DNA from: a virus
Taxonomy: Duplodnaviria > Caudoviricetes
DNA: 64,000 bases
IMG/VR virus record: IMGVR_UViG_3300011113_000415
Strand: one strand, 5' to 3'
The notes beneath the pieces are model-generated. The model was given only the letters and a program-made list of their open reading frames with translations. It did not search any database and had not been told where the DNA came from. The first letter of the stretch is position 1. Every line of letters begins with the position of its first letter. The position numbers were made by a program, and so were the translations under genes. Positions 16,173-41,183 of this stretch are shown here, in pieces.

Positions 16173-16763
16173 ATGACCAAATGGCCACTGGTAAACCGCG
16201 CTAAAGATAATACCAGTTGGGTTGCTTTGGATAACATTTTTACAGATCAGGAACTTGATGACATTGTGGCTCAAGCCGATCAAGTGGAAAAAAAAATATC
16301 AAGTACTACTGGCAATAGATCAATTTCAGATTATCGTGTGTGTGATATTGCCTGGTTGGAATCTGATGAGATAGAATCAGATTTTGATTGGATATATGCC
16401 ACGCTGACAGATGTAATAAGCCGAGTCAATAATGAGTATTTTAGATTTGACTTGACGCATTTGAATGCGTTACAATACACAATATATGATGGAAACAATC
16501 ACAGCAACTATCAAAAACACATGGACCTAGGACGACAATTTCCCAATAGAAAATTGAGTTTTAGTGTGCAATTGTCTGACGATACTGAGTACACAGGAGG
16601 AGATTTGAGATTCCATTACGTCAAAAATCATCCTGAAGTCGCTCCAAGGCAAAAAGGTCAAGTGATCTTTTTTCCCAGTTGGCTAGTTCATGATGTCACT
16701 CCAGTCACACAAGGAACACGCCGCAGTTTGGTGGGTTGGGTTAATGGTCCAAATTTTAAGTAA
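16173..16763 (+). CDS. 2OG-Fe(II) oxygenase (PKHD/prolyl-hydroxylase-like)
   Basis: HMD...RKLSFSVQL...GGDL...HDVTPV...RRSLVGW. Confidence 0.9.
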   Translation: MTKWPLVNRAKDNTSWVALDNIFTDQELDDIVAQADQVEKKISSTTGNRSISDYRVCDIAWLESDEIESDFDWIYATLTDVISRVNNEYFRFDLTHLNALQYTIYDGNNHSNYQKHMDLGRQFPNRKLSFSVQLSDDTEYTGGDLRFHYVKNHPEVAPRQKGQVIFFPSWLVHDVTPVTQGTRRSLVGWVNGPNFK

Positions 16764-16775
16764 ACAAGGAAAGCA

Positions 16776-17957
16776 ATGAGAAAACTTTACTACATGGGTC
16801 TTGAAAGTTATCAAGGCCGATACACGCTACAACTAACAGAGTGGAACCGGCGAGTGTTTGACCGCAGAGGTCTTGACGTTGTGTATGTTCCTGGCACAAC
16901 TATTGACAACACACAGGCCATATCAGTTGGTCAAGTGTTGGACGCACATGGTCGCAGTTACTTTGGCATGAGCCAGATGATGAACTTGGTTCAACTTATG
17001 AAGAATGGAGAAGTTACCAATGAAGATGTTATCTACTTTGAAGACATGTTTCAACCTGGAATCGAGAGTCTACCCTATATTCTTGATCAAGTTCCTGGCG
17101 ATCAGCGTCCCCGCGTATATGTTAGGTGTCTTGCTCAGTCCATTGATCCTGATGATTTCGTACATGTATGGGGTATGGCGCGATGGATGGGACTCTACGA
17201 ACAAATGGTCAATGAGTTTGTGGACGGAGTTCTTGCCACAAACGAAGAGATGGTTGCTCATATGCGCATTGCTGGATGGCGTGCTCCTATATACAATATT
17301 AGTGGCCTAGCATTTGGCAAGGCAGAAGTGTTAGAACGCATTGGTGGTGCCGACAACATTCGACCATTCCATGAACGCCAATTGCGTGTGGGCTTTGCCG
17401 CCCGCTTTGATCAAGAGAAACAACCTGGCTTCTTTATGGACCTGGCTGAACAGTATCAGAAGACAGACCCTAGTGTGAAGTTTGCTATCTTTCAAGGTGG
17501 CCCATTGAGATCAAACAATGCTGAGTATGTTGCTCGTGCTAGACAATTGGCCAGTGCTGGCCTGTTGGAAATACATGAGAACTTGAACAAGAATGACTAC
17601 TATGCTCTCGTTAACGATACTCGTGTGTTGTTTAATTGTGCCCTTCAAGATTGGGTCAGCAACACAGTTTCCGAGGCTGACACTCTGGGCTGTAATGTAC
17701 TTTACCCTGCTTATCGTAGTTTCCCTGAAACCTTTGCCAATGATCCTGAGCGTCTTTATGTTCCTTGGAGCATGGAAGATGCAATGAACAAACTGGATCC
17801 ACTGTTGGTCACGCCACACACCCGCATGGGACGTATCAGCGACTGGAACAATGGTACTGTAGATAGAATCATTGACATTATCGAGGGCTCTGGCGAGCGG
17901 TGGAATCGTTCGGGCACGAGATATCGTGATCATGTGGCAGGAGCCAAATACCTATGA
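16776..17957 (+). CDS. Glycosyltransferase (GT-B/GT4-like)
   Basis: FAARFDQEKQP; WVSNTVSEADTLGCNVLYP. Confidence 0.75.
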   Translation: MRKLYYMGLESYQGRYTLQLTEWNRRVFDRRGLDVVYVPGTTIDNTQAISVGQVLDAHGRSYFGMSQMMNLVQLMKNGEVTNEDVIYFEDMFQPGIESLPYILDQVPGDQRPRVYVRCLAQSIDPDDFVHVWGMARWMGLYEQMVNEFVDGVLATNEEMVAHMRIAGWRAPIYNISGLAFGKAEVLERIGGADNIRPFHERQLRVGFAARFDQEKQPGFFMDLAEQYQKTDPSVKFAIFQGGPLRSNNAEYVARARQLASAGLLEIHENLNKNDYYALVNDTRVLFNCALQDWVSNTVSEADTLGCNVLYPAYRSFPETFANDPERLYVPWSMEDAMNKLDPLLVTPHTRMGRISDWNNGTVDRIIDIIEGSGERWNRSGTRYRDHVAGAKYL

Positions 17958-18901
17958 ACATCATAGTAACTGGATCAGCAGGCTACATTGGTGGCCAAAC
18001 TGCCTTGCTGTTGAAAGACGCAGGGCATACTGTGTATGGCATTGACCGTAGAGAGCCACCTCGACACTTGTTGGGAGTGGTTGACAAATTTTTGTTGCAA
18101 GACTTTGCATCTGACATTGCCTTGAGTTGGATCATTGCTAAACAACCAGATGCCATTGTCCACTGTGCCGGTACAAGTCTTGTGGGGCCTTCAATGCAAG
18201 ACCCAGCCGAGTACTACAACAACAATGTGGTCAAAACCCTAAAGTTGCTGGACATTGTACGCCGGAGTTTGCCTCGAACCAGAGTTGTATTCAGTTCCTC
18301 AGCGGCCACATATGGTGAGCCTGTGATGATTCCTTGCAGTGAAGTAGATCCCTGTGAGCCTGTATCACCATATGGTGAGAGCAAACTCATGATCGATCGG
18401 ATACTAGAATCATATCACCGAGCATATAGACTCGACTACGTGAGTTTCCGCTACTTCAATGCCTGCGGTGCAGATCCCCAAGGACGCCATGGACAAGAAC
18501 CAGGTGCCACACACATCATTGCTCGTGTGTTAGAAAGCATAAGAGATATAAAAGATTTTGTGTTAAACGGTAATGATTTTCCTACTATAGATGGAACATG
18601 CGTTCGTGATTATGTACACGTAGAGGACATTGCTCGGGCGCATGCCCTGGCCTTGTATCACAAGATTCCAGCAGGCATTTACAATCTTGGCAGTAACATG
18701 GGCACAACCAATCAACAAATTATTGAAGCCGCATTAGATGAAACACAACTACCGTTGAATGTTGTAGTAGGTGCTCGTCGTGTGGGAGATCCGCCTGTGC
18801 TGACTGCCAGCGCAGACAAGTTTAACATGGTGGCCGGTGCTTGGCGTCACTATGATTTGGATGCCATGATACAACACGCATGGTCTTGGTATGTTCGATA
18901 A
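17954..18901 (+). CDS. galE: UDP-glucose 4-epimerase-like NAD-dependent epimerase
   Basis: TGSAGYIG, FSSSAATYG, YGESK, RYFNACG, GTCVRDYVHV. Confidence 0.88.
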   Translation: MNIIVTGSAGYIGGQTALLLKDAGHTVYGIDRREPPRHLLGVVDKFLLQDFASDIALSWIIAKQPDAIVHCAGTSLVGPSMQDPAEYYNNNVVKTLKLLDIVRRSLPRTRVVFSSSAATYGEPVMIPCSEVDPCEPVSPYGESKLMIDRILESYHRAYRLDYVSFRYFNACGADPQGRHGQEPGATHIIARVLESIRDIKDFVLNGNDFPTIDGTCVRDYVHVEDIARAHALALYHKIPAGIYNLGSNMGTTNQQIIEAALDETQLPLNVVVGARRVGDPPVLTASADKFNMVAGAWRHYDLDAMIQHAWSWYVR

Positions 18902-19487
18902 AATTTTGAAATTTGAACATGCGCTGGCCGAGTTTACAGGAGCGCCTTATGCTGTGATGACTGATTGCTGTACACATGCCATTGAGTTGTGCCTGCGACA
19001 CGAGCGTGTGAGAGAATGCCAATTTACACCTTACACCTATTTGAGTATACCCATGCTCATGCTCAAATTGGGCATTGAGTTTCAGTATTTGGACCATGCT
19101 TGGCAACGCTGGGTAGGAGAATACCAATTTATCAATACCAGAATTTGGGACAGTGCAAGACGGTTAGAAAAGAACATGTATCGGCCCGGTGCCATGCAAT
19201 GCGTAAGTTTTGGACATGACAAGCCTTTACATATAGGCCGTGGTGGTGCTATAATACTAGATGACAAAACCGCCTATGATGCACTAATTTGTATGAGGTA
19301 TGATGGTCGTGATCTAAATATCCAACCTTGGCAAGAACAGCGAGAGTTTAGAGTTGGTTATCACTACAAGCCCACACCCGAAGAAGCAATTCAAGGGTTG
19401 GCATTGTTGGAAGGCCTTAAAGAACATTATGCTCCGCCCCGCGAAGTTTTGTATCCAGATTTAAGAACTATTACCATTAGGGAATAA
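18891..19487 (+). CDS. Short DegT/DnrJ/EryC1/StrS aminotransferase-like protein
   Basis: AVMTDCCTHAIEL; DSA; SFGHDKPLHIGRGG. Confidence 0.7.
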   Translation: MFDKILKFEHALAEFTGAPYAVMTDCCTHAIELCLRHERVRECQFTPYTYLSIPMLMLKLGIEFQYLDHAWQRWVGEYQFINTRIWDSARRLEKNMYRPGAMQCVSFGHDKPLHIGRGGAIILDDKTAYDALICMRYDGRDLNIQPWQEQREFRVGYHYKPTPEEAIQGLALLEGLKEHYAPPREVLYPDLRTITIRE

Positions 19488-19488
19488 C

Positions 19489-20235
19489 ATGACAGACAAA
19501 AAGCAAACAGCATTAGACGCCATGGCAGGAGATGGCGGGTATTCAGAAGGCTACCTAGGAGGTTACATTCGTGCTAGAATGAGACGAGAAGGTAAGCGTT
19601 TCTGGGCAGGAGACAACATCAGTGAATACATCAACGATCTTGAAAAAGAAGTGTTAATCGATGAAGCAACTGAAGCATTTGAACTGGTTCTAGATCGTTT
19701 GCTTATAGATCGTGAAACCGATCCTAACAGTAAAGGCACAGCCCGTCGCCTTGCTAAAATGTATTTTAACGAAATAATGGCAGGACGTTATGAAACACCA
19801 CCAGATGCAACATGTTTTCCAAATGATTCGGCGGACCGTTACGAAGGTATGCTGGTTGTTCGCAGTGAGTTGCGGAGTATGTGCAGTCATCATCACCAAC
19901 CCGTTACTGGTGTTGCTTATATTGGTATTTTGGCTGCTGGTAAACTCATTGGACTATCAAAGTACACAAGAATTGCACAATGGTGTGCCCGACGTGGCAC
20001 TCTCCAGGAGGAACTTTGTATTGACATTGCTCGGGAAATACAACGAGCCACCGACTCAGAAAACGTAGGCGTGTACATTCAGGCCACACATGGTTGCTGT
20101 GAGAATCGTGGCATCATGGCACACTCCAGTTTGACACAGACCACTGTGTTGCGAGGCTTGTTCAAAACCGATGCAGGTGTCAAAAAAGAGTTCATGGACA
20201 ATATCAAACTGCAACAAGACTTTGCTCCGAGATAA
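19489..20235 (+). CDS. folE: GTP cyclohydrolase I
   Basis: SMCSHHHQP, GLSKYTR, HGCCENRG. Confidence 0.95.
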   Translation: MTDKKQTALDAMAGDGGYSEGYLGGYIRARMRREGKRFWAGDNISEYINDLEKEVLIDEATEAFELVLDRLLIDRETDPNSKGTARRLAKMYFNEIMAGRYETPPDATCFPNDSADRYEGMLVVRSELRSMCSHHHQPVTGVAYIGILAAGKLIGLSKYTRIAQWCARRGTLQEELCIDIAREIQRATDSENVGVYIQATHGCCENRGIMAHSSLTQTTVLRGLFKTDAGVKKEFMDNIKLQQDFAPR

Positions 20236-20237
20236 CA

Positions 20238-20429
20238 ATGTTATTAGAAATTGCATGTATCGTAGCAGGATTTTTGGCAGGCATGACCTATGCTCAAGAA
20301 CGAGACTGGCAACGCTACTGCAGGACTCGTGAAGAAGTCAAAGACGAAGTCAGTAAGGAGTTTGACTATTACAAAAACCTTTCAGTCAGCCTAAAACAAG
20401 ATTTACATCAACTCAAAAATAAAAAATGA
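20238..20429 (+). CDS. Small hypothetical protein with N-terminal TM segment
   Basis: 63 aa. Confidence 0.5.
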   Translation: MLLEIACIVAGFLAGMTYAQERDWQRYCRTREEVKDEVSKEFDYYKNLSVSLKQDLHQLKNKK

Positions 20430-20535
20430 CTTGCATATCTAACCATGACGGCTCCATTCAACTGCCTGCGGAACCGGGTTTGTTGGAATGGTTGCAACAG
20501 CACTATCCTTATTCACAATATCATTTGATTGAATT

Positions 20536-20937
20536 ATGAAATACCAAACACTAGAATCAGCACAGACAGCAGGTGCGGCACCCTGGGATCTCAAAGTAGA
20601 TGAACTGTCAGACTTTCATGTTACAGTATTCCAAGATCGCTTTCCAGTCACTACAGGGCACTTGTTGTTTGTGCCCAACTACAATACCGCTGAACTTATC
20701 CGAGATGCATTTTACAGTGCTCAACTGGCTGGAGAAAGCATGGTACAACTGGGAGAATGCGATGCCTACAACATTGGTATCAATCAGGGTCGAGCCGCTG
20801 GTCAAACCATAATGTACCCACATATCCATCTAATTCCTCGTAGAACCGGGGACTGTGCGGATCCAGTAGGTGGTGTGCGGGGCGTAATTCCCCAACAACA
20901 GAACTATAAAACCCATCACTATCAACAGCCAGCATAA
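20536..20937 (+). CDS. HIT-family nucleotide hydrolase
   Basis: GHLLFVP; AGQTIMYPHIHLIPR. Confidence 0.88.
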   Translation: MKYQTLESAQTAGAAPWDLKVDELSDFHVTVFQDRFPVTTGHLLFVPNYNTAELIRDAFYSAQLAGESMVQLGECDAYNIGINQGRAAGQTIMYPHIHLIPRRTGDCADPVGGVRGVIPQQQNYKTHHYQQPA

Positions 20938-21018
20938 ATATTCTTTTAAGCGGTCTTGGCGTCATTCCCGCTCGACAAACTCTGCCGCCTATGCTACAAT
21001 TTAACATAGGAGAACAGC
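20935..21018 (+). promoter_or_regulatory. Late-promoter-like ATAAATA followed by structured leader of queD that masks the RBS
   Basis: AGCGG/CCGCT stem, possible GGCG/CGCC pseudoknot, CCTATG/CATAGG hairpin over AGGAG. Confidence 0.45.
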
Positions 21019-21534
21019 ATGAATTCAATACAAATACCCGTTCCTCGCCAGTACAAATACACAAGTACCAAAGAGTATCACGACGCATTTCCTTGTGCCT
21101 ATCGACAGTGGCGGGCTGACAGCCATTGCAATCTCATACATGGGTATTCATTCTCAATGAAGTTCTACTTTGGCACAGATCACTTGGATGTACGCAACTG
21201 GGCCGCCGACTACGGTGGACTTAAAGAACTCAAATCAGTGCTGGAAGATCAGTTTGATCATACCTTGTTGGTTGCTGAAGACGATCCTGAAATCGAATTC
21301 TATCATGAAATGCAACGCAGGAACATTGCCAAACTAACTATATTACCCAAGTTGGGATGCGAAGGTCTTGCTGACCAACTATACAAGTATGTTAACGGTG
21401 TTTACATTCCGGACCTTTGGGGCCAGGGTGAAGCAGAGCGTCTCTGGTGTTATCGTGTGGAAGTACGTGAAACTCAGAGCAACATGGCTTTTAGAGAAGG
21501 CCATCGCGAATGGAATGAAGATCTGTTCGCATAA
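21019..21534 (+). CDS. queD: 6-carboxy-5,6,7,8-tetrahydropterin synthase
   Basis: CNLIHGYSF, DYGGLKELK, FDHTLL, GCE. Confidence 0.9.
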   Translation: MNSIQIPVPRQYKYTSTKEYHDAFPCAYRQWRADSHCNLIHGYSFSMKFYFGTDHLDVRNWAADYGGLKELKSVLEDQFDHTLLVAEDDPEIEFYHEMQRRNIAKLTILPKLGCEGLADQLYKYVNGVYIPDLWGQGEAERLWCYRVEVRETQSNMAFREGHREWNEDLFA

Positions 21535-21549
21535 TCTAAAGGAGAAATT

Positions 21550-22173
21550 ATGTTAGGCAAACTATTTGAAGGCGTAGATAAGAAGATGATGGCCAAACTT
21601 GCATTTTTGCATTTGGTTATTATTGTTATCTCAAACGCACTTGTTTCAATTCCAGTTGAAATCTTGGGTGTGAAATTGACCTGGGCGGCTTTTGTTTACC
21701 CAATGGTTATCTTGGCCAGTGACTTGACCGTGAGATTGATTGGTAAAGGCATTGCCAGAGCCACCATTGCGGCCGCATATCCCCTGGCCATTGTTGGTAG
21801 TATAGCAGTTGTATTGCTAGAAGGTGCACCTACCAGTGTTGCTTTACGCATTGGCTTTGGTAGTGCCACAGCATACTTGATTGGTTGCTTACTTGATGTA
21901 TACGTATTCCAATATGTGCGTGAAAAGTTCACACAACAATGGTGGGCCGCACCTGCACTCAGCATGGTTGTTGCTAACTTCATTGACAGTTATGTGTTCT
22001 TTAGTATTGCTTTCTCGGGTGGTGCAGATGAATACATGGCCGCTAACTGGCCTGAAATTGCTCTCAGCCAAAGCATCTTGAAGATTGTGGTTGGTTTCAT
22101 CTTGTTCTTACCAGCGTATGGCGTGTTATTAAACTACTTGAAGAAGCGTCTAGGCAACACCGATCAAGGTTGA
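21550..22173 (+). CDS. yhhQ: YhhQ/VUT-family 7-deazaguanine precursor transporter
   Basis: About 6 TM segments; ISN, TWAAFVYP, SDLTVR, LDVYVF, IDSYVFFSIAF. Confidence 0.85.
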   Translation: MLGKLFEGVDKKMMAKLAFLHLVIIVISNALVSIPVEILGVKLTWAAFVYPMVILASDLTVRLIGKGIARATIAAAYPLAIVGSIAVVLLEGAPTSVALRIGFGSATAYLIGCLLDVYVFQYVREKFTQQWWAAPALSMVVANFIDSYVFFSIAFSGGADEYMAANWPEIALSQSILKIVVGFILFLPAYGVLLNYLKKRLGNTDQG

Positions 22174-22183
22174 TAATGACCCT

Positions 22184-23011
22184 ATGAGCACAGATATTTC
22201 AATTCTGTTGCCCACACGTGGTAGGTCAGACATGCTGATGCGTAGTCTGACCAGCCTACATGATCTAGCCACTGATTTCACCCGTATCGAAATCTTGTTT
22301 GGCATGGACAACAATGATGCAGTAGGTCTCGAAAACATGTTGCATCATGTGATACCCTGGATTGAACGGCACAAAGTTGCACACAAGATTGTGATCTTTG
22401 AACCCATGGGCTACCACAATCTGCACAAGTACTTGAACGGCCTGGCAGAGTCAAGTGCAAGCCCCTGGTTGTTCTTCTGGAACGACGATGCTGTTATGAA
22501 AACACAGGGTTGGGACACATACATACGTGCCCGGACCGGCGAATTCAAATTGCTCAGTGTGATAACACACAACGAACATCCTTATTCTATCTTTCCTATA
22601 ATACCACGCGAATGGTTTGAAGTTTTGGGGCATATCAGTCAACACAGTCTCAACGATGCCTGGGTCAGTTGTATTGCCTATGGCCTAGACATATTTGAAC
22701 GACTGCCTGTGTATTGTGACCATGAACGCCATGATCTAACAGGCACCAACAATGATGCCACGTATCAACAGAGAACAGTGCTGGAAGGTGATCGTAGCAA
22801 CCCTTTGGATTTCAACTATCCCAGCGTGGTTGAACTCAGGATGCAAGATGCTGCCAAATTGGCACAATGGCTTCAGGATGTGAAAAATCAAGACATGACA
22901 TTTTTTGCAGAATGTTGCGAGGGCATACGAGATCCCTGGGTCAAAATGCGAGCCAACGATCCCAACCGACAAGTAGTGACCATGACTGTAGAACGATTAA
23001 ATAAAGAATGA
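22184..23011 (+). CDS. GT-A (GT2-like) glycosyltransferase, paralog 1
   Basis: ISILLPTRGR, FFWNDDA, HPYSIFP, NDAWVS. Confidence 0.75.
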   Translation: MSTDISILLPTRGRSDMLMRSLTSLHDLATDFTRIEILFGMDNNDAVGLENMLHHVIPWIERHKVAHKIVIFEPMGYHNLHKYLNGLAESSASPWLFFWNDDAVMKTQGWDTYIRARTGEFKLLSVITHNEHPYSIFPIIPREWFEVLGHISQHSLNDAWVSCIAYGLDIFERLPVYCDHERHDLTGTNNDATYQQRTVLEGDRSNPLDFNYPSVVELRMQDAAKLAQWLQDVKNQDMTFFAECCEGIRDPWVKMRANDPNRQVVTMTVERLNKE

Positions 23012-24951
23012 CCAAAAGAACAATCAGTTTTGTCCAGCCCAACTTTCAACAAGGCCCCAAAGAGTTCAATGCCTATTATTTGCCTTATTCTGCAGGCGTA
23101 ATATTGAGTTATGCCTTTAGTTTTGAACACATAAGCCGGGCCTGGGCTGTGGATCAAATGATTTGGCGTAGAGAACCAATTGATGATCTTGCACCACAGT
23201 TGGCCAAGAATGACATCGTGGCATTCAGCACCTATGTTTGGAATCACAGATACAACTACAAACTGGCAGAAAAAATAAAACAAATCAATCCCGCGGTCAA
23301 GATAATATTTGGTGGTCCAGAACCTGCCATTGAAGATACTGAACTGTTTGTGAAAGAGCCATTCATGGATTTGGTCAGCAAAATGGAAGGTGAGATCACA
23401 TTCAAACGCATACTAGAAGACTTTGATACTGACTTTACTCACATACCCGGCCTATTAATCAACACGCCCAACGGTCTAGTCAACACAGGTGACTGTGCCA
23501 GAATCGATGATCTAGATCAAATACCCAGCCCTTATCTTACAGGCATCTTTGATCAAATCATTGAAGAGAACCCTGACGTGATCTGGAACGCTACACTAGA
23601 GACCAATCGCGGTTGTCCTTATCAGTGTACATTCTGCGACTGGGGCAGTCTAACCTACAACAAGGTCAAGAAGTTTGAACTCACACGAGTGTTTCACGAA
23701 ATGGACTGGATCGGAGCCAACTGTGGCTTTGTTACCATCACAGACGCCAACTTTGGCATGTTTGTGGAACGTGACAACATGATTGTGGACAAGTTGATTG
23801 AAGTACAAAAACGCTGGGGACGATTATCTTCGTTCTCCATGACCTGGGCCAAGAATCAAAAGAACGAAGTTGTGGACATTGTGAAGAAGTTGATACGTGA
23901 AAGTCCAAACTTTGGTCAAGGTCTTACTGTGAGTGTACAGAGCATGGACCACGATGTGTTAGAAAACATCAAACGTAGAAACCTAGATCAGCACAAGATT
24001 GATGAAATTTTTGCCTTGTGTGATCGCAACAACATTCCTGTGTACACAGAGTTAATTCTTGGTCTGCCAGGCGAAACAGTGCAGTCATGGAAAGATGCAT
24101 TCTGGAAAATTTTCCGTGCAGGCAATCACACAGGCATAAACATTCTGCAAGCACAGTTGCTGGAGAATGCTGAAATGAATCTGCTACAAAAACGAATGTG
24201 GAAAATTAAATCAGTTCCTGTATTTGACTACATGAGTGGCAGTTATGGCGATGCTGACCTTAACGAGTGTGTGGATGTGGTAGTGAGCACCAAAGATATT
24301 CCCAAAGAAGAAATGTTAGACACCTTGGTCTGGAACAGTTTTATTCAAACATTCCATATCAACGGCTTGACCACATACATTGCTAGATACTTAGACAAAG
24401 CACATGGCATCGAATACAGCAAGTTCTATGATGATCTGTATCAGTGGGTGCAACAGGACACATGGTTTAGTGAACAGTTTACTGAAACACGCGATTATTT
24501 TGCTAACTGGACACGACACGGATCTATCAATCATCCACCCATCGGCAACATTCAAGTGTTTGGATGGAACCTAGTGCACCGTACCACCTTGTATATGCAA
24601 CAGCAAGATCGAGTGGCCTATGTATTCGATAGTGTTGACAGATTCGTAAAAAGTCATTATAATATTGACAAGCACATATTAGATCAACTCATGCGGTTCC
24701 AGCGGAACTATGTGATTGACTATCGTGATCTTAAATCTTTACCAATAAAACAAGAATTTGATTATGATTTTCTTGGTTACATCTTGGATGACGAGCCAAT
24801 TAAACAGTCATGCACATACACATTTGACACCCCAGAGGATCAAGATATGAGTATGGACCGTTTTCTTGAAAACATGTACTTTGCTAGAAAGAGAAACTTT
24901 GGAAAAACAACTATCATCCGAGACCGCGTCCACGACGCCCAACTTGCCTGA
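23008..24951 (+). CDS. Cobalamin-binding radical SAM enzyme (class B-like)
   Basis: B12-domain AFSTYVWN...IIFGGPE; CxxxCxxC in RGCPYQCTFC; ILGLPGET. Confidence 0.9.
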   Translation: MTKRTISFVQPNFQQGPKEFNAYYLPYSAGVILSYAFSFEHISRAWAVDQMIWRREPIDDLAPQLAKNDIVAFSTYVWNHRYNYKLAEKIKQINPAVKIIFGGPEPAIEDTELFVKEPFMDLVSKMEGEITFKRILEDFDTDFTHIPGLLINTPNGLVNTGDCARIDDLDQIPSPYLTGIFDQIIEENPDVIWNATLETNRGCPYQCTFCDWGSLTYNKVKKFELTRVFHEMDWIGANCGFVTITDANFGMFVERDNMIVDKLIEVQKRWGRLSSFSMTWAKNQKNEVVDIVKKLIRESPNFGQGLTVSVQSMDHDVLENIKRRNLDQHKIDEIFALCDRNNIPVYTELILGLPGETVQSWKDAFWKIFRAGNHTGINILQAQLLENAEMNLLQKRMWKIKSVPVFDYMSGSYGDADLNECVDVVVSTKDIPKEEMLDTLVWNSFIQTFHINGLTTYIARYLDKAHGIEYSKFYDDLYQWVQQDTWFSEQFTETRDYFANWTRHGSINHPPIGNIQVFGWNLVHRTTLYMQQQDRVAYVFDSVDRFVKSHYNIDKHILDQLMRFQRNYVIDYRDLKSLPIKQEFDYDFLGYILDDEPIKQSCTYTFDTPEDQDMSMDRFLENMYFARKRNFGKTTIIRDRVHDAQLA

Positions 24952-25783
24952 ACGTGATCCCTCTGTAGATATCAGTATCTTGTTGCCTGTGCGTGGCAGG
25001 CCCGAACCCATGAAAAAATGTTTGCACACTTTGATCGATCATGCAAAAAATCCTGAACGTATCGAAGTGTTGATTGCATTTGATGACGATGACACAGATA
25101 CTATCAACTACTTTGTTGAAAATATTGCGCCTTATCTTGATGACATGGATGTGCGTTACAGTGCCATGCAGTTCCAGCGGCTAGGCTATATCAGGCTTAA
25201 TGAATACTTAAATGAACTGGCTCGACACAGTGCCGGTGCTTGGATGTTCTTTTGGAATGACGATGCTGTGATGACCACACAGGATTGGGATCAAGCAATC
25301 ATGGCTCACGATGGTGAGTTTGCGTTGTTACGTGCAGAAACCAATCACGCACATCCTTATGCAATCTTTCCTATTGTGCCACGCAAGTGGGTAGAGATAA
25401 CTGGACACCTGAGTCCACATCAGATCAATGATGCCTGGGTCAGCCAGGTGGCTTGGATGTTGGATATTGTTAAAAATATTCCAGTCATGGTCGATCATGA
25501 ACGCTATGATCTAACAGGCAAAAACGGAGATGATGTTTATAAAAATCGCCCTATGCTGGAAGGTAATCCTGCCAACCCACGAGACTTCAATCACATTACC
25601 TGGCGGAAGACCCGCATTGATGAATGTATGAAATTGGCTCAGCATCTTGTACCGCTTGGGCACAACATGAATCATTTCAAATGGGGTGTTGAAGGCAAGG
25701 ATGATCAAGGTCGTGACTATGATATTTGGTGCAAGATGAATGCGGCAGACCCACACAAACGCTTGAAACAATGGAAAGACTAA
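24866..25783 (+). CDS. GT-A (GT2-like) glycosyltransferase, paralog 2
   Basis: ISILLPVRGR, FFWNDDA, HPYAIFP, NDAWVS; true start uncertain. Confidence 0.75.
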   Translation: MKTCTLLERETLEKQLSSETASTTPNLPERDPSVDISILLPVRGRPEPMKKCLHTLIDHAKNPERIEVLIAFDDDDTDTINYFVENIAPYLDDMDVRYSAMQFQRLGYIRLNEYLNELARHSAGAWMFFWNDDAVMTTQDWDQAIMAHDGEFALLRAETNHAHPYAIFPIVPRKWVEITGHLSPHQINDAWVSQVAWMLDIVKNIPVMVDHERYDLTGKNGDDVYKNRPMLEGNPANPRDFNHITWRKTRIDECMKLAQHLVPLGHNMNHFKWGVEGKDDQGRDYDIWCKMNAADPHKRLKQWKD

Positions 25784-25784
25784 C

Positions 25785-26567
25785 GTGAACAATGATCAAC
25801 TGATTGACCGCATAAAGCAATATTGGAACGCACAACCCTGTAATGTAAAACACAGCCTGAGCGAACCCGGAACAGAACAATACTGGAACGAAATATCAGA
25901 ACGCAGATATTTTGTAGAACCACATCTACGTGATTTGGCCGGCTTTCACCAATGGCGCGGCAAACGTGTGTTAGAAGTGGGCTCAGGTATTGGATCTGAT
26001 GCAGTAGAGTTTGTGCGTCACGGTGCTGAGTATGTGGGCATTGATCTTTCAGCAGAATCAGTGGCCATGAGTCGTCAACGATTTAAGTTGTTTGGTCTTG
26101 ATGGCGAGTTTCATAATATAGATGCTGCCGACACCAAAAGCGTGGCCGCACTAGGCCGCTTTGATTTGGTTTACTCATGCGGTGTGCTACATCACTATCC
26201 AGACATGTCCACGTGTCTTGACAACATTCACAATGCATTAGAACCCGATGGTGAATTTAGAATGTTGGTTTATGCAAAGAATTCCTGGAAGTATGCCATG
26301 ATCCGAAAAGGTCTGGACCAGTTCGAAGCACAAGCCGGATGTCCTTATGCCCAGGCCTATTCGCACGAAGACATCTACAATCTCCTAAATGGAAAATTTG
26401 AAGTCCTAAGGATTAGACAAGCACATTGTTTCATGTATAATATACCCAAGTACCGTCAAGGTATCTACGAACTCGAACCTTGGTTTGCGGCCATGTCAGA
26501 AGAAATGCGTGAGGCCGTGAAAGAATATCTAGGTTGGCATTTATTAGTTAAAGCACGGAAAATATGA
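25785..26567 (+). CDS. Class I SAM-dependent methyltransferase
   Basis: VLEVGSGIG, GIDLS, FDLVYSCGVLHH. Confidence 0.9.
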   Translation: MNNDQLIDRIKQYWNAQPCNVKHSLSEPGTEQYWNEISERRYFVEPHLRDLAGFHQWRGKRVLEVGSGIGSDAVEFVRHGAEYVGIDLSAESVAMSRQRFKLFGLDGEFHNIDAADTKSVAALGRFDLVYSCGVLHHYPDMSTCLDNIHNALEPDGEFRMLVYAKNSWKYAMIRKGLDQFEAQAGCPYAQAYSHEDIYNLLNGKFEVLRIRQAHCFMYNIPKYRQGIYELEPWFAAMSEEMREAVKEYLGWHLLVKARKI

Positions 26568-27421
26568 GTAAACTTAAAGTAGCAGAATTGTTTTATAGTG
26601 TGCAAGGCGAAGGCAGGTACATGGGTGTGCCGTCAGTGTTCTTGCGTGTGTTTGGATGCAACTTCAAGTGTGCCGGCTTTGGCATGCCGCGTGGTGAACT
26701 CAGCACAGAAGTCAACGATATTGCATCAAGAGTACACTACTACAAAACCTACAACGAACTACCATTGGTATCTACAGGCTGTGACAGTTATGCGTCATGG
26801 GATCCAAGATTCAAGGATTTGAGTCCTGTGGTAGAAAGCAATGGCATTGTGCATCGCATCATGGAGATCTTGCCACATCGCCGTTGGGAAAGTGAGCATT
26901 TGGTAATCACAGGTGGCGAACCTTTGCTGGGTTGGCAACGTGCTTACCCAGACTTGCTAGATCACCCCAGCATGGACAGACTTCGAGAGATCACGTTTGA
27001 AACCAATGGCACCCAAGCATTAGATGATCGCTTCAAAGAATACTTGCATACATGGACATATCATCATGATCACAACTTTCGCCGAGAAGTCACGTTCTCA
27101 GTTAGTGCCAAACTACCCGGTTCGGGTGAATCATGGTCGGATGCCATTCGACCCGACGTGGTTTGTGAATACGAAGAGTATGGTTATACATACTTGAAAC
27201 TGGTGATTGCCACAGAACAGGATCTAGCAGATGCAGAACAAGCAGTCTTGGAATATCGCACAGCAGGGTTTGAAGGTCCTGTGTATGTTATGCCTGTTGG
27301 CGGTGTTGAACGGGTGTACAATCTTAATAATCGAGCAGTGGCAGAAATGGCCATGCGAAAAGGGTGGCGCTATTCAGACCGACTCCAAGTACCACTCTTT
27401 AAAAACGAATGGGGAACTTGA
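26564..27421 (+). CDS. queE: 7-carboxy-7-deazaguanine synthase (radical SAM)
   Basis: ELFYSVQGEG, FLRVFGCNFKC...GCDS, ITGGEP, FETNGT. Confidence 0.92.
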   Translation: MSKLKVAELFYSVQGEGRYMGVPSVFLRVFGCNFKCAGFGMPRGELSTEVNDIASRVHYYKTYNELPLVSTGCDSYASWDPRFKDLSPVVESNGIVHRIMEILPHRRWESEHLVITGGEPLLGWQRAYPDLLDHPSMDRLREITFETNGTQALDDRFKEYLHTWTYHHDHNFRREVTFSVSAKLPGSGESWSDAIRPDVVCEYEEYGYTYLKLVIATEQDLADAEQAVLEYRTAGFEGPVYVMPVGGVERVYNLNNRAVAEMAMRKGWRYSDRLQVPLFKNEWGT

Positions 27422-34832: not shown

Positions 34833-34918
34833 ACAACGGACGCCGTATTGGTCGCAGGCCCTAGACTCATAATCTAGTTCGAAAGACACTGTGGGTTCGA
34901 ATCCCACCCGTTGTACCA
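34833..34918 (+). tRNA. tRNA with CAT anticodon and long variable arm (Ile2/Met identity unclear)
   Basis: ACAACGG/CCGTTGT, loop CTCATAA, TC-GAAA-GA variable arm, TTCGAAT T-loop, CCA. Confidence 0.85.
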
Positions 34919-34926
34919 CAATAACC

Positions 34927-35406
34927 ATGACCAAAGTAAATTCCAGTCCCCAACGTCACACATTCCAACACAGCAAAATTGAGTTGGAAGCAGTGCTGGA
35001 AGATATCCGCAATCAGGATCGCCTGAAATTGGCCGACCCAGAGTGGCAAAAAGACAATCTAGAGTACGACTTGCGTAGTACCAAATGGATCTGCGACCGA
35101 GTCAAAAGCACCAAGACCTATGCTCAAAACTTGTATGCGGCCCTGTGCAACAATGACTTTCAAAAGAACGCGGTATGGACCAGACTTGAAGACAAAGTAT
35201 GGGGTTGTAGTTGGCGACATGCTGGAGGTATCGTAGCCGACATGCGTGAAGAAGGTGACTACATTGATTGGTACTGTTCGGGCATACAAGGCGAGCCTGA
35301 TGAGTCCTGGATAGATCTAGGGCATGTTCCTGAAGGCACTGTTACAGACCAAATCCGTGAAGACTTGTTTCGCCTGGGATGGCTTGTGCTAGAGTCCCGA
35401 GACTAA
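34927..35406 (+). CDS. Hypothetical protein
   Basis: YAQNLYAALCNN...CSWRHAGGIVA. Confidence 0.65.
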   Translation: MTKVNSSPQRHTFQHSKIELEAVLEDIRNQDRLKLADPEWQKDNLEYDLRSTKWICDRVKSTKTYAQNLYAALCNNDFQKNAVWTRLEDKVWGCSWRHAGGIVADMREEGDYIDWYCSGIQGEPDESWIDLGHVPEGTVTDQIREDLFRLGWLVLESRD

Positions 35407-35459
35407 ATTTTTTCTATTGCCAACATAGATAATCTCAATAGCAAAAACCTATTTTTTGC

Positions 35460-35488
35460 TTGACTTCATTGATATATACTATTATAAT
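35460..35488 (+). promoter_or_regulatory. Sigma70 promoter
   Basis: TTGACT-17-TATAAT. Confidence 0.75.
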
Positions 35489-35535
35489 AAACACTCAGTA
35501 CAAACACTGAGTTTCATTTCAACAAGGAGAAAAAT

Positions 35536-36075
35536 ATGAAAACTGTAGGCGATAAGTTAACCCCGTTTGCTGTCACTGGCGTCCGTCCTGGACAACCCGA
35601 AGACGCTTTTTATACCATTACCGACGAATCATTTGAAGGCAAGTGGAAAGTGATTGTGTACTATCCCAAAGACTTCACATTCGTTTGCCCCACCGAGATT
35701 GTGGCCTATGACAAGTTGGCTGATGACTTTGCTGACCGTGATGCAGTATTGCTAACAGGATCAACAGACAACGAGTTCTGCAAAGTGGCATGGCAAAAAT
35801 CGCATGATGACCTGCGCAAGATCACACATCATCAGTTTGCTGATACACAGCGTGGCGAGTTATCATTGATTGAACAACTGGGCGTGTTCTATGCGCCAGC
35901 AGGTGCCGCACTTCGTGCAACATTCATTGTTGATCCCAACAACGAAATCCAACACGTTACTGTCAACAACTTGAATGTTGGTCGCTCACCAGAAGAAACA
36001 CTCCGTGTGTTAGACGCTCTACAAACAGGCGAACTGTGTGCATGTAACCGTACAGTTGGTGGCGAAACCCTGTGA
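35536..36075 (+). CDS. ahpC: Peroxiredoxin AhpC
   Basis: YYPKDFTFVCPTEI; GELCACN. Confidence 0.93.
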   Translation: MKTVGDKLTPFAVTGVRPGQPEDAFYTITDESFEGKWKVIVYYPKDFTFVCPTEIVAYDKLADDFADRDAVLLTGSTDNEFCKVAWQKSHDDLRKITHHQFADTQRGELSLIEQLGVFYAPAGAALRATFIVDPNNEIQHVTVNNLNVGRSPEETLRVLDALQTGELCACNRTVGGETL

Positions 36076-36254
36076 AGATAAACTTCTTTAGTCGCGGCGT
36101 AGAAACTCTACGCCAACCTGATCGCAAACCTAGATGTTATGAACTAACCGAGCAAGAACGTCTGGACAAGATTCGTGAATGGAACAATCGTAATGTTTGG
36201 AACACTCCTGAGTTGGCTGAACAAGACCTTGAGTCCACTTATTACGGAGCATAA
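36072..36254 (+). CDS. Hypothetical protein
   Basis: 60 aa, GTGA overlap. Confidence 0.45.
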   Translation: MKINFFSRGVETLRQPDRKPRCYELTEQERLDKIREWNNRNVWNTPELAEQDLESTYYGA

Positions 36255-36256
36255 TC

Positions 36257-36910
36257 ATGTTAGAAACCATTTGCGAAACATTGGTAGAAGCCTATCGTAG
36301 AAACTGGATTACCAGTCGTGATGGCAATGTCAGTATCCGTCATCACGACCGTGATCACTTTTATATCACCCCGTCGGGTGTGCGCAAGCAGACCATGCAA
36401 CCAGATCAGTTTAAGAAGATACGATTGGTCAACAGCATCAGTGCCACACCTCCGTTCTTGACACAGTCATGGCAAGAAGATGACTATACTGACATCAGTA
36501 GCAATCTAAAGCCTAGTGGTGAGATACCCTTGCACTTTGGTTTACAGCGAGCCATGGGCCAACATGCCAATGATGTGCGTGTGGTAGTACACTTGCATCC
36601 TACCTATTGTGTGGCGGCCATGCATGCTGGTATTGATTTGTCAACTATTGTGAATGACTTTCCTGAACTGAGTCGTTACACAAGGGTGGCGCCCAATGTG
36701 GGCGATGTGCCGCCTATCAGTCAAGAACTTGCAGATCGTTGTCACCAAAATCTACAACTGGATTCCGCGGGTAACATTGCCTACGATATTGTGGGCATCA
36801 AAGGTCACGGGGTGGTGGCCATTGATACCAGTCCCTGGCGTGCATTTGAGCATATAGAGAGGTTGGAACATATTTCAAAAATTGTATTATCATCAAGGAG
36901 ATTTCAATGA
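36257..36910 (+). CDS. Class II aldolase/adducin-family protein
   Basis: DGNVSIR, PSGEIPLH, HLHP, GHGVVA. Confidence 0.85.
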   Translation: MLETICETLVEAYRRNWITSRDGNVSIRHHDRDHFYITPSGVRKQTMQPDQFKKIRLVNSISATPPFLTQSWQEDDYTDISSNLKPSGEIPLHFGLQRAMGQHANDVRVVVHLHPTYCVAAMHAGIDLSTIVNDFPELSRYTRVAPNVGDVPPISQELADRCHQNLQLDSAGNIAYDIVGIKGHGVVAIDTSPWRAFEHIERLEHISKIVLSSRRFQ

Positions 36911-37422
36911 CAGCATGGGTTGATCAACTCAAAGAAGGCCTGCCCGAGTATGCCAAAGATACAAAGTTAAACTTGGACGCTGTGATCAAGCGTGGCACCA
37001 TTGATCCAGAACAAGCAGAAGCCATTGCCTTGGCGGCGGCTTTTGCTACAGGCAATGGTAAATTGGTCTCATTCATTCAAAGCAACGTTGCCAATGGGGT
37101 AGAGCGTGATGCGGCACTCACAGCCGGTTCAATCATGTCAATGAACAATACTTGGTATCCTTACGTTGAAATGGCGGAAGATCCTGCACTCAAAGGCTTG
37201 CCAGCACAACTTAGAATGAATGCCATTGCCACACACGGTGGTACTACAAAGGCTCGTTTTGAAGCCTACAGTCTAGCCGCTTCAATAATAGGCAAGTGCC
37301 ATTTCTGTGTCAAAGCACATTATGATACCTTGAAAAAGGAAGGCTACTCAGTTGAACAACTGAGAGACATTGGTCGTATTGCGTCTGTGATTGCCAGCGT
37401 TGCTCGTGTGCTGAACAGTTGA
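36907..37422 (+). CDS. ahpD: Alkylhydroperoxidase AhpD
   Basis: MNNTWYP; CHFCVKAH. Confidence 0.9.
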   Translation: MTAWVDQLKEGLPEYAKDTKLNLDAVIKRGTIDPEQAEAIALAAAFATGNGKLVSFIQSNVANGVERDAALTAGSIMSMNNTWYPYVEMAEDPALKGLPAQLRMNAIATHGGTTKARFEAYSLAASIIGKCHFCVKAHYDTLKKEGYSVEQLRDIGRIASVIASVARVLNS

Positions 37423-37661
37423 GCAAGCGGCAAAACCAGTTGACCGGTGTTGGTTATTGAAACTGTTGCGAAGCACTTCACACTGAATCAAGGTCTCAAC
37501 GGGTCTTGATTCTTTGATCAAGGCATGATCGGCAGTGAAAATAAACAAAGTCAATATGTATTCCATATGATTATATATCCTACTAAACGTTGGAAATTGT
37601 GTTGTTTGTTATACAGAGTTCTTGGATTAATATAACCTGCAAAACTAATACTTTTGTGTTA

Positions 37662-37690
37662 TTGACCCAAATTGGATCCTGTGTTATAAT
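37662..37690 (+). promoter_or_regulatory. Sigma70 promoter
   Basis: TTGACC-17-TATAAT. Confidence 0.75.
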
Positions 37691-37707
37691 TACAAACTAA
37701 GGAGAAT

Positions 37708-38178
37708 GTGATGCCATGGATCGAAAATGTAGCCGCCGCAGATGTGCCCCAAAGGCATCATCACGAGGCTGGCGACAATGCCATGCTGATCCAGATCATG
37801 GATCCGTGTCCCACCTGGTGGCCCGCTCCTGCACACAACTTTCGAGAAACACATCGTTTTGAATTTTTGGATGCAGAAGATGGTGATCGTTTTCCTGAAG
37901 AATGTTTGATCAGCGATGCCCAGGCTGAAAAAATTGTAGGCCTGTTGCAACATGCCTTGGCCAATCGCATGAACGTGGTTGTGCATTGTGTGGCAGGATT
38001 GTGTCGCTCAGGTGCAGTGGCTGAAGTTGGCGTGATGATGGGCTTTGATGAGTGTGAACGCACTCGCATACCCAACATTAGAGTCAAGCATAGGTTGATG
38101 AAGGCCTTGGGCTGGACCTATGATGCGAATGAACAGCCAGATGCAGAAGCCTGGCGTAAGATGAACCTAGATTATTAA
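37708..38178 (+). CDS. Dual-specificity/tyrosine phosphatase-like protein
   Basis: HCxxGxxRS: VHCVAGLCRSG. Confidence 0.8.
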   Translation: MMPWIENVAAADVPQRHHHEAGDNAMLIQIMDPCPTWWPAPAHNFRETHRFEFLDAEDGDRFPEECLISDAQAEKIVGLLQHALANRMNVVVHCVAGLCRSGAVAEVGVMMGFDECERTRIPNIRVKHRLMKALGWTYDANEQPDAEAWRKMNLDY

Positions 38179-38188
38179 GGAGGCAATA

Positions 38189-38794
38189 ATGCCCGCAGTA
38201 TTTTTGACAAGCGACACGCACTTTGGACACGCAGGTGTCTGTCGCTTCACGCACCCAGATGATCCTGAAGTGAAATTGCGTCCCTGGACTGATCCAGACG
38301 AGATGGATGAGGCAATGATCAAGAAATGGAACGAACGTGTTCGTCCCAACGACAAGGTCTATCACTTGGGCGATGTTGTGATCAATCGCAAGGCTTTGAA
38401 GACCTTGGCACGTTTGAACGGCGACAAGGTGTTGATCCGTGGCAACCACGACATCTTTAGAGATGACGAGTATCGTGAATACTTTCGTGAATTGCGAGCC
38501 TACCATGTGATGAACGGCATGATCTTGAGTCACATTCCTGTGCATGAGGCTTCGTTGGGTCGCTTTGGAGTTAACATTCACGGACACTTGCATGCCACTC
38601 GTGTGAAAAAAGCACGTGGGGTTGACGCCAAGACCGGAACTGTTTTGTACAGCACTGAAATTGACCCACGCTACCATTGCGTGTGTGTGGAGCAAACTGA
38701 CTTTGCACCCATCTTGTTTGAAGATGTTATCAAACGGATTGAAGCAGAAGGTGGTAAAGTTGGCTTTCAAAATGGCAATGGACCCACAATGTAG
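38189..38794 (+). CDS. Calcineurin-like metallophosphoesterase
   Basis: SDTHFGH, HLGDV, GNHD, HGHLH. Confidence 0.88.
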   Translation: MPAVFLTSDTHFGHAGVCRFTHPDDPEVKLRPWTDPDEMDEAMIKKWNERVRPNDKVYHLGDVVINRKALKTLARLNGDKVLIRGNHDIFRDDEYREYFRELRAYHVMNGMILSHIPVHEASLGRFGVNIHGHLHATRVKKARGVDAKTGTVLYSTEIDPRYHCVCVEQTDFAPILFEDVIKRIEAEGGKVGFQNGNGPTM

Positions 38795-38797
38795 GGG

Positions 38798-38826
38798 TTG
38801 ACAAGGTATAAATAAACCTGTATAAT
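38798..38826 (+). promoter_or_regulatory. Consensus sigma70 promoter, with TATAAATA in the spacer, heading the tRNA array
   Basis: TTGACA-17-TATAAT. Confidence 0.85.
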
Positions 38827-38835
38827 TAGCACATT

Positions 38836-38973
38836 ATGAAAACATTTGGACCTTATTCGTTATCAGTCCGTCCACAGAGTCTGGGCACATGCCCCGCCTT
38901 GTGGTCCACGATTGAGAACATGCATAATGGTCGTGAACTAGATCACAACAGGGTCCAAGGAGATCGGGAGTAG
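38836..38973 (+). CDS. Putative attenuator leader peptide (45 aa, near-leaderless)
   Basis: MKTFGPYSLSVRPQSLGTCPALWSTIENMHNGRELDHNRVQGDRE*; ends just before terminator and contains the antiterminator arm. Confidence 0.5.
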   Translation: MKTFGPYSLSVRPQSLGTCPALWSTIENMHNGRELDHNRVQGDRE

Positions 38974-38998
38974 GTCAATACATACTCCAACTTCGAAG

Positions 38999-39028
38999 AC
39001 CCTGGAACTCGAAACTCCAGGGTTTTTT
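38999..39028 (+). terminator. Intrinsic terminator (attenuator)
   Basis: ACCCTGGA/TCCAGGGT 8-bp stem followed by TTTTT; 5' arm can instead pair with CAGGGTC at 38949-38955. Confidence 0.8.
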
Positions 39029-39047
39029 ATTTTTAAAAAAGGAAAAA

Positions 39048-39203
39048 ATGACAGATACAAAATGTAAACGTCAGGCAGAGTACACGCGACAACACACACT
39101 AACTGAAGCAGATCTTCGCAGAATGATGGCAGAAAAATTAGAACGTGCTCGAGCGTGGCATAATGCCATGATCAAGCGACGAGTTCTTCAAGAGAACCGT
39201 TGA
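39048..39203 (+). CDS. Small basic hypothetical protein (51 aa)
   Basis: AAAGGA RBS; MTDTKCKRQ...RVLQENR. Confidence 0.5.
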   Translation: MTDTKCKRQAEYTRQHTLTEADLRRMMAEKLERARAWHNAMIKRRVLQENR

Positions 39204-39408
39204 TTCATGTAGTGGCGACAGGAAACGAGATCCTGCAACACACTTTAAACAGTTGCAAATGGGCGGCCTCGGGGATGGATTATCTTCTTGTAGACAAAAA
39301 AATCCGAGCGTATCGAAGCACTTTATCCTTCGGCTCTCTAGCACAAGGGCTAGAGCAAGGTAACCATAGAGTGCTTCGATACACGCATTCACAAGAGTGT
39401 GTTTATAT

Positions 39409-39486
39409 GCCCCTATGGACAAATTGGTAAAGTCATCTCTCTCAAAAGGAGAAGTCGTCTCTGTTCGAATCAGAGTAGGGGTACCA
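39409..39486 (+). tRNA. tRNA-Leu(CAA), short variable loop
   Basis: Loop CTCAAAA; CCA encoded. Confidence 0.85.
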
Positions 39487-39490
39487 TCAT

Positions 39491-39582
39491 GGAAGATGAT
39501 GCAGGTGGGATGGTCCGCCGACGAGCCTTGAAAACTCGGTTCCGAGAAATCGGATGGGGTTCGACTCCTCCGTCTTCCGCCA
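39491..39582 (+). tRNA. tRNA-Ser(TGA)
   Basis: Loop CTTGAAA, long variable arm, G73, CCA. Confidence 0.9.
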
Positions 39583-39587
39583 ATTGT

Positions 39588-39664
39588 TGGGGATTCGCCA
39601 AGTTGGTTAAGGCATCGGATTTTGATTCCGACATGCATAGGTTCGAATCCTATATCCCCTACCA
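39588..39664 (+). tRNA. tRNA-Gln(TTG)
   Basis: Loop TTTTGAT; CCA. Confidence 0.9.
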
Positions 39665-39669
39665 AATTT

Positions 39670-40860: not shown

Positions 40861-40909
40861 CCTTTATTTAACTGCTAGATATTGTGTTGTAAAAATACAA
40901 CAATCAGCA

Positions 40910-40938
40910 TTGACCAATAATTGGTAAACTGCTACAAT
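40910..40938 (+). promoter_or_regulatory. Sigma70 promoter
   Basis: TTGACC-17-TACAAT. Confidence 0.7.
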
Positions 40939-40982
40939 AGAACTTAACAAAGCAACAAAGTCGATCGAGACTGGTTGCACTA

Positions 40983-41183
40983 GATCTTTAAAATACTCAA
41001 AGAGGTTACCAGACCCGTTAGAGGCATTGGTAGAAGTGAACAAGGCATCGGCGGGTGCCCACTTGCTATCAGTCATGAAATAGGCTCTCACTCCCCCTCG
41101 GGAGGTGATCCGGTAGAAGCGGCGGACCGTCTGGCAGTAATGACCGTGGTGACTTGGCCTCGCAAGCCAAGCAGAATAAGATC
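40983..41183 (+). ncRNA. Candidate structured ncRNA (~200 nt, unassigned)
   Basis: GATCTT/AAGATC closing stem; TACCA/TGGTA and CTTGGC/GCCAAG hairpins; directly after a promoter. Confidence 0.4.

Follow-up and report, generated by a model that had tools for sequence, protein, structure and literature searches.

What occupies the gap between a HIT-domain gene and queD in this phage DNA, and does it control the genes that follow? The window (the whole 64,000-nt stretch of DNA that was analysed, from the Caudoviricetes record IMGVR_UViG_3300011113_000415) is phage DNA with dense plus-strand genes, and the string of genes behind queD (21550-27421, plus strand) is tightly packed. A leader lies in the 81 nt between the HIT gene and queD. 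An initial annotation of the sequence had described in it a stem, a pairing between the loop of that stem and a downstream tail, and a hairpin over the ribosome-binding site (RBS); every one of these elements, with all the pairings proposed for them, could be read from the sequence (Table 1).

Table 1. Positions of the leader elements and the neighboring genes in the window (RNA letters are used for parts of the proposed leader RNA).
Feature	Position	Strand	Remarks
HIT-domain gene, 5' of the leader	20536-20937	+	stop codon TAA at 20935-20937, 11 nt before P1
Cis-acting mRNA leader (proposed)	20949-21021	+	aptamer of ~41 nt plus expression platform
P1, 5' arm AGCGG	20949-20953	+	pairs with 20968-20972
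L1, UCUU	20954-20957	+	positions 2-3 (C, U) near-invariant; length varies among relatives
Pseudoknot, 5' strand GGCG	20958-20961	+	pairs with 20986-20989
L2, UCAUU plus unpaired C20967	20962-20967	+	C20967 directly 5' of the P1 3' arm; candidate specificity base
P1, 3' arm CCGCU	20968-20972	+	from covariation and RNAalifold
L3 linker, 13 nt, CGACAAACUCUGC	20973-20985	+	family consensus W-U-A-N-A-A-A-Y-U-C-U-G-C
Embedded sigma-70-type promoter (predicted)	20972-21000	+	-35 TCGACA 20972-77, 17-nt spacer, TG 20992-93, -10 TACAAT 20995-21000
Pseudoknot, 3' strand CGCC	20986-20989	+	from covariation
Anti-Shine-Dalgarno arm CCUAUG	20988-20993	+	C20988-C20989 common to the pseudoknot
Shine-Dalgarno-side arm CAUAGG (21005-21010)	21005-21012	+	overlaps Shine-Dalgarno AGGAG (21008-21012)
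queD (PTPS/QueD family)	21019-21534	+	Pfam PF01242, E = 7.9e-14; first gene under the leader
yhhQ-like, Vut_1	21550-22173	+	
Glycosyltransferase-like	22184-23011	+	
B12-binding radical SAM	23008-24951	+	
GT2	24866-25783	+	
Methyltransferase	25785-26567	+	
QueE-like	26564-27421	+	

Upstream of the leader, the genes encode, in order, a family-B DNA polymerase, a methyltransferase, a 2OG oxygenase, an epimerase, a DegT aminotransferase, FolE, a small ORF and the HIT protein. Across 16173-27421, folE, queD and queE are interleaved with genes for the 2OG oxygenase, the epimerase, the DegT aminotransferase, the HIT protein, glycosyltransferases, the B12-radical SAM enzyme and methyltransferases. Such mixing of deazaguanine genes with modification enzymes suggests that the product is a further-decorated deazaguanine base. 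None of the ORFs scanned around the leader was recognised as QueC. At the DNA level, the only match among known phages was a weak one in the QueD-coding region, to Achromobacter phage Motura, and no close deposited phage was found. The window also carries 24 tRNA genes clustered at 34833-47988 on the plus strand (ARAGORN), among them all four tRNAs with GUN anticodons (Asp 41449, Asn 41818, His 44263 and Tyr 44901), which are the normal recipients of queuosine.

The initial annotation had held that the pseudoknot and the RBS-masking hairpin are mutually exclusive. This is borne out by the folding model, as both folds need C20988 and C20989: the hairpin alone has a folding energy of -4.5 kcal/mol, and with these two residues blocked no fold is left at all (0.0 kcal/mol). 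The Shine-Dalgarno (SD) sequence AGGAG ends 6 nt 5' of the queD ATG (21019). As a single sequence, the window leader is no better folded than chance (minimum free energy -15 kcal/mol; z = -0.13; equalled by 85 of 200 shuffles), and no intrinsic terminator was found at the leader. Directly after the pseudoknot strand, UAUGCU (20990-20995) is complementary to AGCAUG (21016-21021) at the start codon, so that window-clade leaders with GCAUG may have a second alternative fold, one that masks the AUG.

Across relatives, in contrast, the evidence for an RNA element is strong. QueD-based searches of IMG/VR, in which at least 600 stretches encode the associated QueD, yielded 216 stretches that were kept among the matches listed, or 217 with the window. 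A structure descriptor located the leader 5' of queD in 194 of these 217 stretches (among the matches listed), in the form of 82 distinct aptamer variants; it lies directly 5' of queD even though the upstream genes differ. In the stretches without it, queD abuts the preceding gene or the stretch is incomplete. Six relatives without the leader (L024, L031, L045, L059, L075 and L080) have a queD that begins 0-2 nt past the stop codon of a conserved upstream gene, which suggests that translational coupling of queD makes the switch unnecessary.

The relatives are giant phages. The contigs that were searched, five in number and 200-518 kb long, include four that are at least 98 per cent complete (CheckV) and one with terminal repeats. 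A covariance model was built from an alignment of 29 variants of equal geometry (A2) and was used for searching only, since its own alignment mis-registered the loop of the window leader. The model gave a single strong match in the window, at 27.7 bits, with the runner-up at 7.8, and one strong match in each of the five giant-phage records, at 31.6-67.3 bits, with no runner-up above 16.1; each of these matches lies at queD. No additional copies of the leader were found in the window or in these five records.

Searching DNA for the motif first, irrespective of queD, returned 119 loci, with queD at most 160 nt away in 114, further along the same operon in 4 and cut off in 1. In the four loci with a more distant queD, either a short additional gene or an N-terminal extension precedes it; in L363, L369 and L394, for instance, a 113-aa cupin-like ORF or a 243-aa ORF lies between motif and queD. 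The occasional presence of another gene in this place indicates that the leader heads the operon rather than belonging to queD as such. Among 185,579 species genomes, the motif was matched once, on an 8-kb Chitinophagales MAG contig (L324, CAZXGO010000106.1) at whose end lie the leader, with a GACGC/GTGTC pseudoknot, and 30 codons from the start of queD. The contig is possibly a piece of phage DNA that was binned into the MAG, and apart from it the motif was found in phage contigs only. A looser DNA pattern scan of viral contigs gave chance or coding matches only (L081-L187) and was discarded. A large family of giant phages from lake water thus retains the leader.

Both helices of the aptamer covary. 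P1 occurs in seven compensated versions (in DNA letters, AGCGG/CCGCT, TGCGG/CCGCA, ACCGG/CCGGT, TCCGG/CCGGA, ATCGG/CCGAT, AGTGG/CCACT and AGAGG/CCTCT), and the pseudoknot is found as a 4-bp helix (GGCG/CGCC, GGTG/CACC, GGCA/TGCC, GACA/TGTC and GACG/CGTC) or as a 5-bp helix (GGCTT/AAGCC, GACTT/AAGTC, GGCAT/ATGCC, GGCAT/ATGTC, GACAT/ATGTC and GACGC/GTGTC), the fifth pair appearing or disappearing on both strands together. Free MAFFT alignments (A1 and A3) misplace the 5' pseudoknot strand because L2 measures 4 or 5 nt and the helix 4 or 5 bp; the length-homogeneous sets A2 and A4 (14 distinct sequences from the window's own subclade) and an alignment-free test were therefore used.

Specifically, in A4 the GGCG/CGCC helix is paired in 100 per cent of sequences, with double compensatory changes at three of its four pairs (GGTG/CACC, GGCA/TGCC and GACA/TGTC). 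In A2, where the pseudoknot has 5-bp versions, 93.1 per cent of cells are paired, compared to 29-50 per cent when the partner strand is slid, and double changes affect 6 of the 10 pairs of P1 and pseudoknot. The covariation score of A2 was reached by none of 500 shuffles, and in the alignment-free test on 82 variants, loops scored higher with their own tails than with foreign ones (3.80 versus 3.20; reached by none of 5000 permutations), although the sequences are related and such shuffle statistics overstate their independence. G-U pairs are present at two pairs of the pseudoknot in A2 (in four and three sequences), which fits an RNA of the plus strand and not its complement. RNAalifold independently predicted P1 and the CCTATG/CATAGG hairpin. 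The hairpin itself is almost invariant and hence covaries little: one compensated lineage (CCTATA/TATAGG, five loci) and CCTATG/TATAGG, with a G-U pair, keep the pairing, and one lineage has a mismatch. An alternative fold in which the invariant CUGC would pair with GCGG of P1 was rejected, because P1 variants such as ACCGG lose this pairing.

The unpaired positions are conserved as well. The C and U of L1 are present in 81 and 80 of the 82 variants, respectively, L3 measures 13 nt in 80 of 82, with A.AAA and UCUGC near-invariant, and the C before the P1 3' arm is preceded by U in 74 of 82. The descriptor demanded this C, and the same C is also invariant in the free MAFFT alignments, as is the GG/CC top of P1. 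Conservation and covariation upstream of phage queD genes, on which the initial annotation had made its proposal depend, are thus both found. Together with the single copy per genome and the exclusive association with the queD operon, the covariation strongly supports an H-type pseudoknot in competition with a hairpin that masks the RBS. A conserved, covarying aptamer in a 5' leader, joined to a platform of mutually exclusive folds, is one mark of riboswitches in general, and the comparative sequence evidence strongly supports interpreting this structure as a candidate translational switch.

The leaders differ in what follows the aptamer. Two types of expression platform can be distinguished, the window type (CCUAUG...CAUAGG) and others. 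An internal sigma-70 promoter, mostly TTTACA-17-TGcTATAAT (11/12 plus TG), is predicted in 71 of the 76 window-type leaders and in none of the 38 leaders with other platforms. Conversely, a strong promoter of the TTGACA/TATAAT type ends 2-14 nt 5' of P1 in 25 of the 38 other-platform leaders and in few of the window type. The window's own version, TCGACA-17-TGcTACAAT, matches 10 of 12 consensus positions plus TG and is the best promoter match in 19500-22500; with -35 and -10 hexamers near consensus, a spacer within 17 ± 1 bp and retention in relatives, it has the attributes of a sigma-70 promoter. Its -35 lies in the linker and its TG-extended -10 in the loop of the hairpin.

The predicted transcription start of the embedded promoter, near 21006-21008, is downstream of both the aptamer and the anti-SD arm. 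Transcripts from it would consequently lack the aptamer, and part of the queD mRNA may never carry one. As the HIT stop codon so closely precedes P1, the aptamer of the window clade would be transcribed by read-through only. A weaker promoter-like site, TTGAAT-17-TAGAAT (9/12), lies at 20529-20557, and a gap of 106 nt (20430-20535) precedes the HIT gene; the read-through transcript that carries the aptamer could start at this site. With the other platforms, the RNA would start at the aptamer, the classical position for a riboswitch. Elsewhere in the window, perfect TTGACA-17-TATAAT promoters occur six times (24635-24663, 38798-38826, 45066-45094, 46718-46746, 48652-48680 and 57645-57673) and 11/12 matches many times; one perfect consensus promoter lies inside the radical SAM gene, and several tRNA genes lie just 3' of 12/12 consensus promoters. 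Consensus promoters and SD-led translation point to use of a host polymerase of the sigma-70 type and argue against a Bacteroidota host.

In which direction would the switch work? In the window clade, the 3' strand of the pseudoknot and the bases that follow it pair with the SD. In the other clades, the corresponding bases pair over 6-8 bp with the AUG region (UGYCAUUG/CAAUGGCA, UGUCGUC/GAUGGCA and GUCAUC/GAUGGC), and the longest helix in these platforms averages 6.4 bp, compared to 4.3 bp in shuffles. The strand that closes the aptamer is therefore the strand that masks the RBS in every clade, so that a folded aptamer should turn translation ON. Modelling points the same way: with the pseudoknot strands blocked, modelled SD accessibility rises in 61 of 109 leaders and falls in 8 (mean 0.41 to 0.56), and it barely shifts in the window leader itself (0.38 to 0.41). 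From the structure, we infer the ON direction. This logic, the embedded promoter and the AUG-masking platforms behind their own promoter in other clades all go beyond the initial annotation.

The explanation that we favor, with somewhat more confidence than doubt, is that the leader acts in cis as an H-type pseudoknot aptamer that switches the queD operon ON and is most likely stabilised by a small molecule. The aptamer would comprise a 5-bp P1, a 4-bp loop-tail pseudoknot, a fixed A-rich linker of 13 nt that ends in UCUGC, and an unpaired C beside P1; the 3' strand of its pseudoknot would double as the start of the anti-SD arm. In the free state, CCUAUG would pair with CAUAGG and the AGG of the SD would be hidden. 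When the aptamer is stabilised, C20988-C20989 would be pulled into the pseudoknot, the hairpin would collapse and queD would be translated, and the coupled deazaguanine and sugar-modification genes would be expressed along with it. In the window clade, the promoter inside the platform would additionally yield a short transcript that escapes the switch.

The stabiliser would most likely be a small molecule with a guanine-like Watson-Crick face, that is, a 7-deazaguanine (preQ0, preQ1 or CDG) or a pterin precursor; the initial annotation had likewise proposed a pterin or deazaguanine intermediate. We infer both the small-molecule nature of the trigger and its identity from the design of the aptamer: the unpaired C beside P1 suggests a ligand with a guanine-like face, which fits 7-deazaguanines and the pterin intermediates of the pathway alike. 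ON control of a biosynthetic operon by the end product of its pathway would be unusual, which weighs against the explanation that we favor; the ON logic fits a substrate or a salvage signal better than an end product.

Instead of a metabolite, a protein such as QueD or another phage RNA-binding regulator might choose between the two folds, with the pseudoknot as its operator; the initial annotation, too, had allowed for binding by a pathway enzyme. The same structure and switch architecture would serve a protein effector equally well, and the leader pseudoknot of phage T4 gene 32 is indeed bound by the gene's own product. We nevertheless consider a protein operator unlikely. The aptamer is very small, its unpaired nucleotides remain near-invariant across QueD proteins down to ~83 per cent identity and across platforms, and the C beside P1 and the A-rich linker are arranged as in a known pocket for a small molecule; moreover, no candidate RNA-binding gene accompanies the leader in the loci that were inspected.

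If a metabolite is the effector, the leader might still belong to preQ1-I as a diverged form, binding preQ1 and repressing queD in the manner of the bacterial members. The resemblance is considerable. PreQ1-I has a P1 of 5-6 bp closed by G-C, with U residues after its 5' arm (PMC10622847, PMC11625349), a specificity C that adjoins the P1 3' arm and follows a U in type I or an A in types II and III (PMC11625349), and L3 adenines that directly precede P2 (PMC10622847). The phage leader likewise forms a minimal H-type pseudoknot with a 5-bp P1 closed by G-C, and it has an A-rich L3 and a location ahead of queuosine/deazaguanine genes, including one for a yhhQ-type transporter. As in type I especially, its C20967 follows a U and immediately precedes the P1 3' arm, in the position of the ligand-reading C of preQ1-I (PMC11625349), and is accordingly a candidate for the same role.

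We nonetheless judge membership in preQ1-I to be quite improbable. The initial annotation had set the leader apart from the preQ1-I consensus and had proposed a comparison with Rfam, which upholds the distinction: no family matches the window leader (in a 1.1-kb scan and in an 86-nt scan at E ≤ 10) or 16 divergent relatives, and scores against preQ1-I itself (RF00522) are 9-16 bits, compared to the gathering cut-off of 39 bits, which a control search passed in 1 of 14 control genomes. When RF00522 was searched directly against five phage genomes, faint local matches fell on the leader in two (9.3 and 11.2 bits), below random matches elsewhere in the same genomes. Scores so far under the cut-off indicate that the leader is not a preQ1-I member, although its pocket may be similar.

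The architecture differs too. L1 of the phage leader is longer than that of preQ1-I and begins N-C-U, and in its L3, which has a fixed length of 13 nt, an invariant YUCUGC (5-6 nt) keeps the A tract apart from P2; in preQ1-I, the two adjoin directly. The P2 of preQ1-I contains SD bases, which results in OFF regulation (PMC10622847, PMC11625349). In contrast, the phage P2 measures 4-5 bp, covaries freely and does not include the SD; its 3' strand is instead the anti-RBS strand (directed at SD or AUG), so that folding should activate, and the predicted response is ON rather than OFF.

There is also only a slim chance that the leader is structured but independent of any ligand, with a 5' pseudoknot that protects the mRNA or a fixed structure that holds the translation of read-through transcripts at a constant, low rate. 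In many clades, the element is exactly at the 5' end of the transcript, where a stable structure can guard against decay, but this leaves three observations unexplained: the 3' strand of the pseudoknot is in every case complementary to the RBS, even where the platforms are unrelated, the loop C and 13 positions of the linker are near-invariant, and the element occurs only at queD among the hundreds of genes in each genome. Finally, it is extremely improbable that there is no RNA element and that the locus merely holds a sigma-70 promoter for queD with hairpins formed by chance: although the embedded promoter is the best match in its region, such promoters are many in this phage and the single-sequence fold does not surpass shuffles, this reading is already contradicted by the compensatory changes in two interleaved helices, the strand-specific G-U pairs and the retention of the aptamer in clades that lack the internal promoter.

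On the explanation that we favor, that of an activating and probably ligand-stabilised aptamer, the leader can be described more fully as a minimal pseudoknot that resembles preQ1-I, with a different linker and reversed logic, and that represents a new class found only in freshwater giant phages; it would sense a 7-deazaguanine, or else the pterin that QueD uses as substrate, and would turn ON an operon for DNA base modification, and in one clade a promoter in the platform would give rise to both regulated and unregulated mRNAs. We hold this fuller description with belief and doubt about equal. To our knowledge, there are almost no riboswitch classes confined to viruses, and our search of the literature found no published phage riboswitch for queD, preQ0 or deazaguanine, nor such a motif. 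Since the element is abundant (at least 600 IMG/VR stretches have the associated QueD), single-copy, only ~41 nt long and richly covarying, it is directly testable with synthetic RNA. Should it bind a 7-deazaguanine or a pterin, it would add another kind of aptamer for these metabolites to the three preQ1 classes and would be the first among them with ON logic, and giant phages would time the hypermodification of their DNA by sensing metabolites. The small size and activating logic would suit use as a genetic tool, and a promoter nested within an expression platform is an unusual arrangement.

How does the leader compare to other known systems? The preQ1-II and preQ1-III riboswitches are HLout pseudoknots of ~80-100 nt with 4-5 helices, located upstream of queT, and the known preQ1 classes are all OFF switches (PMC11625349). 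The phage element shares with preQ1-II and preQ1-III (RF01054 and RF02680) a pseudoknotted leader tied to 7-deazaguanine metabolism, but it measures ~41 nt, has two helices and matches neither model in Rfam. Guanidine-III and similar riboswitches are translational ON switches built on small pseudoknots. The phage leader resembles them in its compact H-type pseudoknot, the folding of which is linked to freeing the RBS, and differs from them in gene context, with no similarity to their sequences or models in the Rfam scans. Like the leader of T4 gene 32, it is predicted to be a pseudoknot in a phage mRNA leader that controls downstream translation; the autoregulatory pseudoknot of gene 32, however, is bound by protein and has no known small-molecule pocket. 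The glutamine riboswitches of marine phages are rare phage-borne cases and are copies of a bacterial class (PMC9004378). The candidate described here would likewise be encoded by phages and control phage genes, but, unlike the glutamine riboswitches, it has no bacterial counterpart in the 185,579 species genomes, apart from the one MAG contig. The element is therefore best described as a new, phage-restricted riboswitch candidate, with a design that is related to that of preQ1-I.
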